Notes: a model not told the origin generated them from the letters alone. A stretch of DNA of 64,000 nt from an uncultured Spirochaetaceae bacterium (GCA_964474355.1 CAYYSY010000172.1:16526-80525), one strand, 5' to 3'. Shown: positions 10,104 to 16,925, counted from the first letter of the stretch. Made by a program: numbers and translations.

Positions 10104-10358
10104 ATGGCGTCAGGCGAAGCGGGATCGCTCGAAGAGCGCGTGACCGGTCTGATCGTGGAACAGCTCGGCGTGTCGGCCGAGGAGGCGAGCCTGAAGGCCT
10201 CCTTCATCGAGGACCTCGGTGCCGACTCTCTCGACATCGTCGAGCTCGTCATGTCGTTCGAAGAGAACTTCGACATCGAGATCCCCGACGAGGACGCCGA
10301 GAAGATCCAGACGATCGGCGACGTCGTCACCTATCTCCAAGAGCACGTCGAGGCCTAG
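10104..10358 (+). CDS. acpP: acyl carrier protein
   Basis: [15 protein letters not shown] phosphopantetheine-attachment motif. Start at MASGEAGS (10104) inside the longer ORF-track frame. Confidence 0.95.
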
Positions 10359-10362
10359 GAAG

Positions 10363-11619
10363 TTGCCGGATCGCGATCCGTCGCAGCGGGTCGTCGTCAC
10401 CGGCCTGGGTTGCGCGTCGCCGCTCGGACTCTCCGTCACCGAGACGTGGGACGCCGCGATCGCTGGCCGCTCTGGCGCCGCCACGATCCAGGCCTTCGAC
10501 CCCGAAGGCTATGCCTCCACCATCGCCGCCGAGGTGAAGGGCGACCTCGATCTCGGGGACGTCGAGCCGAAGGAGGCCCGGCGCATGGACCGGGTCGTCA
10601 AGCTCGCGTTGCACGCGACCCGCGAGGCGTTGATCGACTCGAAGCTCGAAGTGAGCGACGCCAATCGCGACCGGGTCGGCGTCGCCGTCGGCTCGGGCAT
10701 CGGCGGCCTCGAGACGCTCACCTCCAATCAGAACACGTTGATGGAGAAGGGCCCGCGCCGCGTCTCGCCGTTCACCATTCCGATGTCCATCGCGAACATG
10801 CCGAGTGGCCTGATCTCGCTCACGCACGGCCTGCGTGGACCCAACCTCTGCCACGTGAGCGCGTGCGCGACCGGTGCCCACGCGCTGGGCGAGTGCATGC
10901 ACTTGATCGCGCGCGGCCAGGCCGACGTCATGGTCGCCGGCGGCAGCGAAGCGCCGATCCAGCCGCTCGGCGTCGCGGGCTTCGCGGCGATGAAGGCGCT
11001 GACCACGCGCAACGACGAGCCCGAGCGGGCGAGCCGCCCCTTCGATCGCGGCCGCGACGGGTTCCTGATCGGCGAGGGCGCCACCGTCCTCGTGCTCGAG
11101 AGCCTCGCGCATGCCCGGGCGCGCGGGGCGCGCATCCATGCCGAGATCGTGGGATACGCGGCCACCGCCGACGCCCACCACATGGTAGCTCCCGATCCCG
11201 ACGGAGCCGGCGCGGCGCGCTGCATGCAGCTCGCCGTGGAGAGCGCCGGGCTCCCGCTCGAGTCCATCGACCACGTGAACGCGCACGCGACCAGCACGCC
11301 GGCGGGCGACCCCACCGAGGTGAAGGCGCTGCGGACCGTGTTCGGCGACCACGCCGACCGCATCGCCGTGTCTGCAACGAAGTCGATGACGGGCCATCTG
11401 CTGGGCGCCGCGGGCGCGCTCGAGGCGCTCTTCTGCATCAAGGCGCTCGAGACGGGGGTACTTCCGCCGACGATCAACCTCGAGGACGTCGACGACGGCT
11501 GCGCCCTCGACCACGTCGCGAACGTGGCGCGGACGCAGTCGATCGCCGTCGCGCTCTCCAACTCGTTCGGCTTCGGCGGCACCAACGCCGCGCTCGTCAT
11601 CACCCGGCCCGATCTCTGA
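10363..11619 (+). CDS. fabF: 3-oxoacyl-ACP synthase II
   Basis: RVVVTGLG..., active-site ACATG, and the HATSTPAGD / NSFGFGGTNA motifs. Proposed TTG start is 5 nt after the acpP stop, so the start is uncertain. Confidence 0.9.
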   Translation: MPDRDPSQRVVVTGLGCASPLGLSVTETWDAAIAGRSGAATIQAFDPEGYASTIAAEVKGDLDLGDVEPKEARRMDRVVKLALHATREALIDSKLEVSDANRDRVGVAVGSGIGGLETLTSNQNTLMEKGPRRVSPFTIPMSIANMPSGLISLTHGLRGPNLCHVSACATGAHALGECMHLIARGQADVMVAGGSEAPIQPLGVAGFAAMKALTTRNDEPERASRPFDRGRDGFLIGEGATVLVLESLAHARARGARIHAEIVGYAATADAHHMVAPDPDGAGAARCMQLAVESAGLPLESIDHVNAHATSTPAGDPTEVKALRTVFGDHADRIAVSATKSMTGHLLGAAGALEALFCIKALETGVLPPTINLEDVDDGCALDHVANVARTQSIAVALSNSFGFGGTNAALVITRPDL

Positions 11620-11752
11620 GCCCGGGCGCGCTGATGGTCACCCGGCCCGATCTCTGAGCCCGGGCCCCCCGATCTTCACTCGGCCCGATCTCCGAGCCCG
11701 GGCCCCCCGATCTTCACCCGGTCCGATCTCCGAGCCCGGGCGCGCTGGGCGC
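11601..11752. repeat. 4 x 38-bp tandem repeat starting inside the last fabF codons
   Basis: Units 11601-11638, 11639-11676, 11677-11714 and 11715-11752 (cacccggcccgatctcTGAgcccgggc...). Units 1-2 keep TGA; units 3-4 have CGA instead. Confidence 0.9.
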
Positions 11753-13720: not shown

Positions 13721-13830
13721 GCGCTGCTCGCGACCGCGCCAAGCAAGGACAGCGGGTGAGCGCTGCTCGTAACCGCGCCAAGCGAGGACAGCGGGTGAGC
13801 GCGCGAAACGGGGACAGCGTGTGAGCGACG
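13713..13830. repeat. tandem copies of the nrdR-stop / ribD-start junction (2 x 39 bp plus 2 partial)
   Basis: gcggGTGAgcgctgctcg..ccgcgccaagc.aggaca at 13713-13751 and 13752-13790; truncated copy at 13791-13816. The final copy gcgtGTGAgcgac carries the ribD GTG (13821). Confidence 0.9.
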
Positions 13831-14981
13831 CGGCGCGACTGGAGGCGATGATGCGGCTCGCGCTGGCGAGCGGTCGTCGCGGCCTCGGCATCACCCATCC
13901 CAACCCGAGCGTCGGCGCCGTGGTCTTCCGCGGTGATCGCGTGCTCGGCCGCGGTCATACGCGCCCGCCCGGTGGCCCCCATGCCGAGGTCGTAGCCCTG
14001 CGCGCGGCCACCCGCCGTCACGGCGCCGCGGCCGTACGGGGTGCCTCGATGGCGGTGACCCTCGAGCCCTGCTGCTTCACCGGCCGGACACCGCCTTGCA
14101 CCGAAGCGATCCTCGATGCTGGCATCGCCCGGGTGGCGGTGGGGATGCGCGACCCGCATCCGCGTGTGAAGGGCCGCGGGAGCCAGCGCCTCGAAGCGGC
14201 GGGGGTGCGTGTGGTGCGCGACGTCCTCGAGGCCGAGTGCCGCGAGCTGCACCGCGGCTTCTCTTCGCTGTGCGAGCGTGGGCGCCCCTTCGTGACGCTG
14301 AAGCTCGCGACGAGCCTCGACGGTCGCATCGCCACGGCCAGCGGCGAGTCGCGCTGGATCACGGGCGCCGAGGCGCGTCGTTTCGTCCACCGGCTGCGCG
14401 CGCGCGTCGATGCTGTGATGGTCGGCTCGGGGACCGCGCTCGCCGACGACCCCGATCTCACGGCCCGTCACGGCGATCGCGTCCTGCGCCGGCCGGATCG
14501 GGTGCTGGTCGACTCGCGGCTCCGCGTGCCCGCGAGCGCGCGCCTTCACATGGGCCACGCCGGCGCGCGGACCCTGGTGCTGGCCTCTGCGCGAGCGCGC
14601 GGTCGCAAGGCGATCGAGGCATCGGGCTCCGAGCTCGTCGAGGTGCCCGGCCGGACCGGCGCACTCGATCTCGAGCGCGGGCTCGAGCTGCTGGGAGAGG
14701 CCGGTCTCACGACCGTGCTGGTCGAGGGCGGGGGCGGCCTCGCGGCCGCGTTGCTGCGGGCGGGGCTCGTCGACGAGCTGCACTGGATCATCGCGCCGAA
14801 GCTCCTGGGCGGCGACGCCGCGCCGGCGCTCGGTCCCCTCGAGCTCGCGAAGCTCTCCGATGCGCCCGAGCTCGAGGTGCTTCGGACAAGGCGCCTCGGA
14901 CGTGATACACACGTGCACGCGCGGCCAGTTGCAGTCGCAGTCGAGCGTGCCCGACGCCGGCCTTCGCGAGGCTCCCAGTGA
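13821..14981 (+). CDS. ribD: bifunctional riboflavin deaminase/reductase
   Basis: HAEVVAL and TLEPCCFTGRTPPC (CMP/dCMP deaminase zinc site), plus a C-terminal RibD reductase domain. GTG start. Confidence 0.9.
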   Translation: MSDAARLEAMMRLALASGRRGLGITHPNPSVGAVVFRGDRVLGRGHTRPPGGPHAEVVALRAATRRHGAAAVRGASMAVTLEPCCFTGRTPPCTEAILDAGIARVAVGMRDPHPRVKGRGSQRLEAAGVRVVRDVLEAECRELHRGFSSLCERGRPFVTLKLATSLDGRIATASGESRWITGAEARRFVHRLRARVDAVMVGSGTALADDPDLTARHGDRVLRRPDRVLVDSRLRVPASARLHMGHAGARTLVLASARARGRKAIEASGSELVEVPGRTGALDLERGLELLGEAGLTTVLVEGGGGLAAALLRAGLVDELHWIIAPKLLGGDAAPALGPLELAKLSDAPELEVLRTRRLGRDTHVHARPVAVAVERARRRPSRGSQ

Positions 14982-15487
14982 ACGTCTATCCCTCGAATCT
15001 CGACGCATCCGGGCTGCGCTTCGCGGTCGTGGTCTCGCGCTTCAACCACCCGATCAGCGCGGCGCTGCTGGAGGGCTGCGTGGAGACGCTCGAGTCGCGG
15101 GGCGCCTCGAGCGACGACGTCGACGTCGCCTGGGTGCCGGGCGCGTTCGAGATTCCGCAGGCGTGTCGCGTCCTCGCGGAGACGGGGCGTTACCACGCAC
15201 TCGTGACCCTGGGCTCGGTGATTCGCGGCGGCACTCCGCACTTCGACTACGTCTGCATCGGTGTCACCGACGGCGTGCGCGAGGTCATGCGCGACACCGG
15301 TGTACCGGTGGCCTTCGGCGTGCTGACCCTCGACGACGTCGATCAGGCTCTCGAGCGCACCGGTGGCTCGCACGGTCACAAGGGCGAGGAGGTCGCGCTC
15401 GCTGCCATCGAGATGGCCCGTCTCGTCCCCGAGCTTGCGCGGGGCGCGCGGGCGCACGTGCCGACCCGCGTGAAGGAGGTCGGCTGA
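14978..15487 (+). CDS. ribH: 6,7-dimethyl-8-ribityllumazine synthase
   Basis: RFAVVVSRFN..., WVPGAFEIP, GSVIRGGTPHFDYV. GTGA overlap with ribD. Confidence 0.9.
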   Translation: MNVYPSNLDASGLRFAVVVSRFNHPISAALLEGCVETLESRGASSDDVDVAWVPGAFEIPQACRVLAETGRYHALVTLGSVIRGGTPHFDYVCIGVTDGVREVMRDTGVPVAFGVLTLDDVDQALERTGGSHGHKGEEVALAAIEMARLVPELARGARAHVPTRVKEVG

Positions 15488-15547
15488 GCCGTGACCGCGA
15501 CCCTTAGAGCAGAGGTCCGCTGAGCGATGGCCGCCGCGAGCTCGAAG
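15476..15547. repeat. two imperfect 36-bp copies of the ribH-stop / nusB-start junction
   Basis: gaggtcggcTGAgccGTGaccgc (15476-) versus gaggtccgcTGAgcgATGgccgc (15512-). About 20 of the first 26 positions are identical by hand alignment. Confidence 0.75.
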
Positions 15548-16159
15548 TCTGCTTCGCGCCACAAGGCGCGTGAGCTCGCGTTGCAGGTGCTCTATGCCGT
15601 CGATCACTCCGAGGGCGCACGGGCGCGCAAGGCTTCGAGTGATGCGTCGGCGGATGTGGGGGCCTCCGATGCCGGCAGTGAGCCGGGGGCGCCCGCCGAG
15701 CCCGCCGAGCCCGCTGAGCCGAGCGTGCCCGAGCGCAGGCGGCGGCTCCCGGTGGAGCTCCCCGGGCGAGGCCCGAGGCCGAAGGCGCCGATGTGGGCAC
15801 CCTCCGAACCGGCCACTCCGGAGCAGACCTTCGACGCCATCGCCGAGCACTTCGAGATGGCCGCCGGCGCCCGCGCCTTCGCCCGCGAGCTGGCGCTCGA
15901 GACCCATGCGCGTGAGAAGGAGCTCGACGCGCTGATCGGCGCCCACGCCCGCAACTGGCGCGTCGACCGCATGGCCGTGGTCGATCGCAACATCCTGCGC
16001 CTGGCGACCTGGGAGCTGAGATTCAGCGACACGCCGACCGCCGTCGTGCTCGACGAGGCGGTGAACCTCGCCCGCCGCTTCGGCGACGACCCTTCACCGG
16101 GCTTCGTGAACGGCATCCTCGACGCCATCGCCCAGGGTGTGCGACCGGCGCCGGCGTGA
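15527..16159 (+). CDS. nusB: transcription antitermination factor NusB with a ~70-aa low-complexity insertion
   Basis: SRHKARELALQVLYAVD ... DRMAVVDRNILRLATWEL ... VVLDEAVNLARRFG. 210 aa, against roughly 140 aa typical for NusB. Confidence 0.85.
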   Translation: MAAASSKSASRHKARELALQVLYAVDHSEGARARKASSDASADVGASDAGSEPGAPAEPAEPAEPSVPERRRRLPVELPGRGPRPKAPMWAPSEPATPEQTFDAIAEHFEMAAGARAFARELALETHAREKELDALIGAHARNWRVDRMAVVDRNILRLATWELRFSDTPTAVVLDEAVNLARRFGDDPSPGFVNGILDAIAQGVRPAPA

Positions 16160-16304
16160 GCACACACGCCGGTTTCGTGAGGAGCGCCGTCGCCCCCGCT
16201 CCCACGTTCTTCGGGACGATTGCCATCGACGCTGCGCCCACGCATTTGGTGACGAACGTCCTCGACGTCCCCGACCGGGGCGTGCGACCATCGCCGGTGT
16301 GAGC
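16103..16304. repeat. diverged duplicate of the nusB 3' end, offset 143 bp
   Basis: 16103-16161 versus 16246-16304: 44 of 59 nt identical by hand alignment. FVNGILDAIAQGVRPAPA* versus LVTNVLDVPDRGVRPSPV*. Weaker similarity continues further upstream. Confidence 0.8.
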
Positions 16305-16925
16305 GCACGGCTCTCGATCGAAATCGACTCGCGTCCGTTCGAGCGCGTGGACGCAGACGTCGCCGTTGCAGGCCTCTTCGAGGACGACCGGCCGCTGCGA
16401 GGTGGTGCGGCGCGCGCCGATTGGCGCCTCTGTGGGCTGCTCTCCCGCCTGATCGTCGACGAGCGCATCTCGGGCGCACCGGGGGATGCCGTGCTCGTGC
16501 CCTCGGACTCGAGGCTGCGCGCGCCGCGGGTCCTGGTCCTCGGGCTCGGACCGCGCGGCAAGCGCTCGCTCGCCCAGGTGCAGGATCTCGTACGGGATGC
16601 GGCCGACCGTGTGATCGGGCTGGGGCTCACGAAGATGGCCCTCGGGCCGATGGGCTTCGCCGGCGACGACTGGCCGCGCCACGCCGACGCGGTGGTCGGC
16701 GCCGGGCTCGAGGCCGTGAGCGCGGCCGACCGTCCGCTCGAGCTCAGCCTCGTGGTTCCGGGTGCCGCCGAGGCGCGCGCCCGCGCGAGCTTCGGCGCCG
16801 TGATCGACGCCCTCGGTCGTCCGTCGATCGAGCTCGTCCGCCGGGACGACCGCAGGGCCGCCGATGGCCCCGCGCGTCGCCGCAAGACCCCCCAGGGGTC
16901 GCCGCCGCTCCATCGATCCCCCTAG
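16299..16925 (+). CDS. hypothetical protein with peptidase-M17-N-terminal-like (macro-like) domain
   Basis: DADVAVAGLFEDD...RVLVLGLGPRGK pattern resembles the leucyl-aminopeptidase N-domain; no catalytic domain is present. The GTG start at 16299 was chosen from the junction structure and is uncertain. Confidence 0.55.
   Translation: MSARLSIEIDSRPFERVDADVAVAGLFEDDRPLRGGAARADWRLCGLLSRLIVDERISGAPGDAVLVPSDSRLRAPRVLVLGLGPRGKRSLAQVQDLVRDAADRVIGLGLTKMALGPMGFAGDDWPRHADAVVGAGLEAVSAADRPLELSLVVPGAAEARARASFGAVIDALGRPSIELVRRDDRRAADGPARRRKTPQGSPPLHRSP

Follow-up and report, generated by a model that had tools for sequence, protein, structure and literature searches.

In the 64,000-nt stretch of DNA analyzed here (the window; uncultured Spirochaetaceae bacterium, GCA_964474355.1 CAYYSY010000172.1:16526-80525), the 3′ end of nusB is followed by a second, partly decayed copy of itself, which lies immediately upstream of the next gene, encoding a Peptidase_M17_N-like protein. 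This arrangement probably goes back to an old tandem duplication that split a sequence with two uses, after which one copy served as the C-terminus of NusB and its counterpart as the leader of the following gene. In the ancestral arrangement, the final 60 nt or so of nusB would have both encoded the C-terminal tail of NusB and formed the leader from which translation of the downstream gene is initiated, and the duplicated segment would have spanned the 4-nt stop/start overlap of the two genes. Thereafter, the upstream copy (16103-16159) would have stayed the NusB tail and lost its nucleotide-level constraint, and the downstream copy (16246-16302) would have stayed the leader, keeping the nucleotide constraint and losing the NusB coding constraint. 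The remainder (16160-16245) would have decayed neutrally and shrunk to different lengths in different lineages. A 48-codon open reading frame (ORF48) that bridges the two junctions would be a by-product of this layout. Its GTG would be the duplicated downstream start and its TGA the duplicated nusB stop, and it would have arisen because the 143-nt period (2 mod 3) happens to put both in one frame.

The window has a G+C content of 70%, and the locus belongs to a string of co-directional genes, namely ribD, ribH, nusB, ORF48, the Peptidase_M17_N-like gene, and a PatA_N/DUF4388-type gene (Table 1). The nusB product reached 123.1 bits with the NusB family model TIGR01951 (curated cutoff 88.35 bits). 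At the first junction, GTG 16156-58 overlaps the nusB TGA 16157-59, yielding GTGA at 16156-16159; at the second, the TGA 16300-02 of ORF48 overlaps GTG 16299-01, yielding GTGA at 16299-16302. Both overlaps had been described in an earlier note on this DNA, and both are present in the sequence. The earlier note had also placed the start of the next gene at GTG 16299. Translation from this codon gives MSARLSIEIDSRPFERV, which aligned residue for residue with the N-termini of relatives whose ATG, GTG, or TTG overlaps the nusB stop (the N-terminal alignment comprised 9 relatives), and GTG 16299 is thus the homologous start. The genes ribD and ribH also share a 4-nt GTGA overlap (14978-14981), so that this putative operon has several consecutive junctions of the predicted termination-reinitiation type.

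Table 1. Features of the nusB/Peptidase_M17_N-like locus, in window coordinates.
Feature	Coordinates	Strand	Description
ribD	13821-14981	+	From the ORF listing
ribH	14978-15487	+	DMRL synthase match, E=2e-50
nusB	15527-16159	+	210 aa; parent gene of the repeat; Pfam NusB PF01029, E=4.7e-33; TIGR01951
Repeat copy 1	16103-16165	+	Working NusB C-terminus FVNGILDAIAQGVRPAPA with its stop, first GTGA junction, and 6 nt further
Hairpin	16146-16178	+	Stem 16150-16158 / 16165-16173; nusB stop and ORF48 start codon lie within the structure
ORF48	16156-16302	+	48 codons; starts with GTG; spans the first to the second stop/start overlap
5′ part of spacer	16160-16245	+	Unalignable filler evolving neutrally; presumably the decayed rest of the duplicated unit
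Repeat copy 2	16246-16308	+	nusB-tail relic and original junction; orthologous to the nusB-tail/start overlap of the relatives
23-nt core	16275-16297	+	CCGGGGCGTGCGACCATCGCCGG; identical to the real nusB tail of loci L049/L051
Peptidase_M17_N-like gene	16299-16925	+	208 aa; Pfam PF02789, E=4.9e-11; GTG start overlaps the ORF48 stop

The NusB protein of this clade carries a long low-complexity insertion rich in Ala, Pro, Glu, and Arg (residues ~30-100, window ~15610-15830) between the first helix and the remaining domain. The Pfam match falls into two stretches, of which the best covers residues 106-202. The insertion holds a 9-nt tandem repeat (AEPAEPAEP), and its length differs among the relatives, whose NusB proteins have 171-216 aa in total.

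The direct repeat turned out to be genuine. A repeat search showed that its two 63-nt copies, at a spacing of 143 nt, are identical at 47 of 63 positions (75%). When each 63-nt stretch of the window was compared with the stretches 64-1000 nt downstream (about 59 million comparisons), an identity of at least 44/63 was reached at only two places, the nusB tail repeat and a tandem array at 11600 that is unrelated to it. Thirty shuffles that kept the triplets of the window gave at most 42/63, short of the 44/63 threshold. The 23-nt core of the second copy occurs once in the window, with zero matches expected by chance. High GC and codon bias raise the background identity, and the earlier note had itself considered a chance similarity confined to a few GC-rich codons. 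In view of the shuffles, the number of comparisons, and the comparative data, which show the copy to be the ancestral junction, such a coincidence is next to impossible. Thus, the claim that the nusB 3′ end was copied at an offset of 143 stands; the hand count of 44/59 (16103-16161) agrees with our value of 47/63 (16103-16165), and the peptides quoted at the time were correct.

The repeat passes the nusB stop by 6 nt (GCACAC versus GCGCAC) so that the start codon of the downstream gene and its first two codons lie within it. GTG 16156 in copy 1 is the duplicated start codon of the Peptidase_M17_N-like gene. At the protein level, the likeness is confined to ORF48 residues 31-47 and NusB residues 193-209, with 8/17 identical residues and an E-value of 0.001 for a single comparison.

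Only 57-63 nt could be aligned, and homology across the full 143-nt unit was not found. Local and semi-global alignments of 16160-16245 with nusB 16017-16102 were no better than those of shuffles and decoys (p=0.11-0.36), and the same region gave no significant alignment with the first 200 nt of the Peptidase_M17_N-like gene or with nusB upstream of the tail (p=0.11-0.84). The weaker upstream similarity proposed earlier (RRFGDD versus PTFFGT) was therefore unsupported. A resemblance of IAIDAAP to IEIDSRP of the next gene was likewise discarded as a sign of upstream homology, as the alignments were no better than shuffles or decoys. A search for a mobile or repeated element detected no second copy of 16160-16245 in the window or in the 136 fetched loci.

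The array at 11600-11741 is a 38-nt tandem repeat with 3.7 copies, 91% matches, and a TRF score of 221. It starts within the last codons of a plus-strand ORF (10219-11619) that ends in FGFGGTNAALVITRPDL and a stop, so that the 3′ end of this gene, including the TGA, is repeated several times downstream. It represents the same kind of event as the nusB-tail copy, but is younger and multi-copy.

Relatives were collected from protein-database NusB matches with 57-100% identity, the contigs of which were fetched, and from 80 metagenome loci found by alignment of the downstream protein; among the matches listed, NusB relatives from species-representative genomes had at most 59% identity. Both genes were projected onto every locus, which resulted in 71 distinct junctions. 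An overlap of −4 between the nusB stop and the Peptidase_M17_N-like start was scored automatically at 54 of the 71 junctions. Inspection by eye revealed an ATGA at six further junctions, where the N-terminus is a few residues longer, raising the number with a 4-nt overlap to about 60 of 71. Loci L055 and L099 have 1-nt overlaps, and P0008 has a 4-nt overlap by gene coordinates. The closest relatives that lack a spacer are L048, L049, L051, L052, and L136. [quoted passage not shown] The spacer with its relic, absent from most orthologous loci, is by its distribution the derived state.

Most relatives have a NusB tail with the sequence REVRAA, whose codons contain a GGAGG some 9 nt upstream of the overlapping ATG, so that the end of nusB doubles as a predicted ribosome-binding leader of the next gene. 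In the wider clade, the dual use of the NusB tail can thus demonstrably be read from the sequence. Together, nusB and the stand-alone Peptidase_M17_N-like gene, which is nearly always the next gene in this clade, form a deeply conserved pair (loci L060-L135 and the window). The gene order and its junctions suggest that NusB and the M17_N-like protein are tightly co-translated and possibly interact.

Spacer and relic were found in only four groups among the 71 junctions. The first is the window group, which consists of the window, the near-identical L042, L043/L057, and the 96%-related L056 and has a junction period of 143 nt. The other three are L045/46/47 with a period of 119 nt, L050 with 91 nt, and L041, from a 6.2-Mb genome, also with 91 nt. 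The spacer, measured from the nusB stop to the homologous start, varies between 87 and 139 nt across the lineages. In all four groups, a relic of the nusB tail can be recognised in the approximately 57 nt that precede the downstream start, and its length is the same in each; measured from GTG to junction, the relics of L045, L041, and L050 are as long as that of the window. Between the nusB stop and the relic, the sequences of the spacer lineages vary in length and cannot be aligned. A 24-nt internal deletion in the L045/L041 relic, joining RFGD to GILD, seemed plausible by eye but need not be assumed, as a 1-nt indel accounts for these bases as well.

The relics share bases that are found only in relics, namely GTG-ACG versus GTG-AAC in the real tails, and GTC versus ATC before CTC-GAC. 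Furthermore, the 5′ block of the relic is identical at 16/19 positions between the window and L045, compared with 13/19 and 12/19 to their own tails. The relics are thus closer to one another than to their own tails and have derived bases in common, which suggests that they stem from a single old duplication across the stop/start junction. Bootstrapped neighbor-joining trees of NusB and the downstream protein united the no-spacer loci L048/52/49/51 in a clade (bootstrap 0.86-0.91) and grouped the window with L045/L041; the placement of L050 and L055 was not settled. The bootstrap for monophyly of the spacer lineages was weak (0.05-0.15). The trees are compatible with one gain and at most one or two losses, and at this weak bootstrap one or two losses or independent gains are compatible as well. 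The spacer would be easily lost, since the overlap is restored when the direct repeats recombine.

The relics are 57-70% identical between spacer lineages, without gaps, and 67-80% identical to the real tails of L049/L051, with values of 0.80-0.87 over the last 30 nt; these comparisons comprise four or five lineages and short sequences. In the window, the last 30 nt of the relic are closer to the L049 tail than to their own parent. For unconstrained sequence with 70% GC, an identity of about 0.3 is expected. The 4-fold sites of the downstream gene are 0.47-0.64 identical between these lineages, which is near saturation for G+C-biased third positions. The gene-proximal 57 nt or so, which include the 23-nt exact match to the real tail of L049/L051, are thus far more similar than random sequences would be. 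The spacer's 5′ part is neutral, since 8/87 nt are changed in L056, close to the synonymous rate of the neighboring gene.

A single arginine codon illustrates how the constraint differs between the copies. In tails without a spacer, GTG-CGA is invariant, and CGA is a rare codon. In the real tails of spacer lineages, this Arg codon drifts at its synonymous site (CGA/CGG/CGC/CGT). In the relics, the A in third position is kept and the meaning of the codon shifts (CGA/CAA/TCA). On these sequences, nucleotide-level constraint has apparently moved from the NusB tail to the relic. In L041, L045, and L050, gene callers start the downstream gene 3-7 codons earlier, and relic conservation in these lineages could partly result from lineage-specific N-terminal extensions of the downstream protein. 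We infer that the conserved copy acts as a leader of the Peptidase_M17_N-like gene, either for its translation or more generally for its expression.

Alternatively, the relics might have arisen by recurrent independent duplications, or have been altered by gene conversion with the nusB tail, in which case each relic would be young and unselected. The 38-nt array indicates that direct repeats of gene ends seem to arise readily here, and the trees unite the spacer lineages only weakly. Another potential example is locus L044 (617-nt ENA contig, 478-600), where 40 nt of the nusB tail are repeated exactly, in direct orientation, 27 nt past the stop; if real, it would be an independent and very recent duplication of the same gene end. 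However, its predicted "NusB" (P0018) begins with unrelated sequence, and the contig, a probable assembly chimera, was left out of the comparison. Independent origins fit poorly with derived states that are common to the relics and absent from all real tails, and with relics that are nearer to each other than to their parents. The same applies to the match of the last 30 nt of the window relic with the L049 tail in preference to its own parent. In addition, the 5′ part of the spacer is fully decayed and the 3′ part is not, which requires age and selection or a very odd mutation process. We therefore consider recurrent duplication or conversion quite improbable.

The coding status of ORF48 was analyzed next to that of its neighbor. 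ORF48 is composed of 29 codons of unalignable sequence and 18-19 relic codons. The earlier view that it reads the copy in the homologous frame without interruption holds for the last 18 or so codons, and the ORF is indeed intact, but the 29 upstream codons could not be aligned. Between the window and the 96%-related L056, ORF48 differs by 10 substitutions and no indel, with a dN of 0.071, a dS of 0.078, and an omega of about 0.9; for the Peptidase_M17_N-like gene, the respective values are 0.018, 0.091, and 0.20. Seven of the 10 ORF48 substitutions are non-synonymous, compared with 1.9 expected under the constraint of the neighboring gene (P=0.003). The ORF48 peptide thus evolves neutrally. 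The dN/dS comparison of copy and parent, which the earlier note had proposed, gave a dN of 0.43 that exceeds the dS of 0.18, and argues against purifying selection on the copy.

ORF48 has no match in Pfam or NCBIfam and is absent from the source-data gene calls on the near-identical contigs. An equivalent 48-codon ORF was not found in the spacers of L045, L050, and L041, where spacer lengths and frames differ. In these lineages, few positions of the peptide are kept, and the third codon positions are the more constant ones. The codon log-odds of ORF48 amount to 0.51 per codon, compared with a mean of 0.96 and a 5th percentile of 0.22 for true frames, and a 95th percentile of at most 0.22 for off-frame reading. 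Such coding-like statistics fit a decayed coding relic that is read in its old frame, and they fit real coding as well. The openness of the frame is uninformative, because at 70% GC, with a mere 0.02 or so stops expected per codon, chance alone would leave a frame of this length open, and two of the three frames run through the spacer without a stop.

The intact frame, the codon statistics, and a plausible coupled start would all be expected of a functional small protein derived from the NusB C-terminus. Against this, omega is close to one, most substitutions since the divergence from L056 alter the peptide, dN exceeds dS between copy and parent, no family match and no gene call exist on the source contigs, and the peptide is not kept in the other spacer lineages beyond a few positions. 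A functional protein is therefore very improbable. ORF48 is most likely a by-product and not a new protein gene, and on present evidence it should not be annotated as a gene.

Nevertheless, ribosomes may well enter ORF48. Since GTG 16156 has kept the ancestral start context, ribosomes that finish nusB probably initiate there. Termination-reinitiation coupling at 4-nt overlaps (ATGA/GTGA) has been described for pairs of real genes (Huber et al. 2019, 2023; PMC6728339, PMC10666635). It needs an overlap or a very short distance, a distance of about 20 nt nearly abolishes it, and the last 15 nt of the upstream gene suffice (PMC10666635). Given these two properties, a relay of ribosomes via ORF48 is mechanistically reasonable. 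In such a relay, ribosomes from nusB would restart at the duplicated GTG, cross the spacer, stop at the duplicated TGA, and restart on the Peptidase_M17_N-like gene. ORF48 would be kept open by selection for its start, frame, and stop, and its amino acids would be irrelevant. This model sharpens the view of the earlier note, which had regarded the relic copy as an intact, translationally coupled frame.

Several observations are in line with a relay. Both GTGA overlaps are present in the window, L056, L042, and L043, with no indel over 143 nt. No Shine-Dalgarno motif was found at a useful distance from the downstream start, the ancestral mode was the 4-nt overlap, and some bridge is needed if coupling fails past about 20 nt (PMC10666635). 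GTG 16156 retains the ancestral context within the 47/63 identical positions, a hairpin over this start would tie its use to nusB translation, and the neutral evolution of the amino acids is as predicted.

However, the three other spacer lineages manage without an ORF48 bridge. In L045, the codon at the nusB stop, in the frame that ends at the overlapping TGA, is CTG and not GTG, and a canonical start appears only at the conserved GTG-ACG, from which an ORF of just 17 codons runs to the junction. In L050 and L041, the 91-nt period places the downstream gene in the frame of nusB; L050 has an in-frame GTG 6 nt past the nusB stop, and L041 lacks a TGA at the second junction. The double-overlap bridge is thus specific to the window lineage, and each lineage seems to have an arrangement of its own. 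Moreover, the open frame carries little information at this GC content, and L056, the sole close comparison, is too similar for a test of indel avoidance. Selection for a relay is possible but unlikely.

In L050 (997-1090) and L041 (4592-4685), no further stop occurs between nusB and the downstream gene, which lie in the same frame, and read-through of the nusB TGA would fuse both proteins.

Folding in silico predicted a very stable hairpin at the nusB stop (Table 1), with −19.9 kcal/mol and z=−3.85; 0 of 200 shuffles were as stable, and a UUU follows. In L056, the stem is unchanged and both substitutions are in the loop. The predicted structure could make initiation at GTG 16156 depend on the translation of nusB, or gate reinitiation, and it could also act on the transcript, either as the end of an mRNA or by stabilising it. 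Over the full 171 nt, the predicted fold was not more stable than those of shuffles (z=−1.36). For the second junction, alifold gave a weak consensus structure (−6.6 kcal/mol), with mostly invariant columns and no covariation, and folding of the single sequences gave z-scores from −2.5 to +2.1. Rfam yielded no family, with best scores of 15-19 bits versus gathering scores of 40-112.

These structures raise the question of whether the spacer is an acquired intercistronic control region, in which the hairpin acts as an attenuator, a terminator, or a stabiliser of the upstream mRNA, and the relic provides a promoter or start signal. The downstream gene would then be uncoupled from nusB. The stability of the hairpin, the UUU behind it, and the conservation of the proximal element at the nucleotide level are all compatible with this function. 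In contrast, no sigma-70-like promoter or terminator was found, the hairpin is not seen at the first junction of the other spacer lineages, and the U-tract is only 3 nt long. A control region of this kind is clearly unlikely, and it would be compatible with the favored split of the dual-use junction rather than exclude it.

Compared with known systems, the locus resembles the coupled gene pairs of Huber et al. in the −4 overlap of the ancestral nusB/M17_N-like junction (about 60 of 71 junctions), in the GTGA geometry at both ends of ORF48, and in a downstream start without its own Shine-Dalgarno motif. It differs in that two junctions are chained through a 48-codon ORF without a conserved product, whereas the published pairs consist of real genes. 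The nusB copy also has the properties of a partial tandem duplication relic followed by subfunctionalisation. It is adjacent to its parent in the same orientation, comprises the 3′ end and the stop, is absent from most orthologous loci, and one part of it decays neutrally. Unlike in the usual subfunctionalisation, a coding role and an overlapping cis-acting role are partitioned rather than two protein functions, and it is the non-coding copy of the nusB tail that is more conserved over the last 30 nt or so.

A 17-sense-codon ORF that runs from GTG-ACG (16249) and ends in the GTGA overlap, present in the window, L050, and L045, is reminiscent of uORFs or leader peptides that overlap a regulated start. 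However, it has no Shine-Dalgarno motif, no conserved peptide, and no regulatory codons, its stop is missing in L041, and there is no evidence for regulation by this ORF. Finally, a direct repeat of a gene's 3′ end and stop downstream of the intact gene is also typical of the att duplications of integrative elements, but here the repeats enclose 80 nt of unique sequence and neither an integrase nor cargo. The feature belongs to a known category, relics of partial tandem duplications at coupled gene junctions, of which it is an ordinary, tidy example.

The finding opens no new field, but it is a clean natural case of how two genes can lose their stop/start overlap. After a small duplication across the junction, the coding and the cis-acting role that the same nucleotides had combined can be taken over by one copy each. 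The exchange of constraint can be followed base by base, with the rare CGA frozen in the overlapping lineages and free in the tail once a spacer exists, and its third base retained in the non-coding relic. If the ribosome relay were true, translational coupling would be preserved between genes 140 nt apart via an ORF that encodes nothing useful. For the clade as a whole, the comparison indicates that requirements of the next gene have largely shaped the conserved C-terminal tail of NusB, and that nusB and the Peptidase_M17_N-like gene are a deeply conserved and probably co-translated pair.
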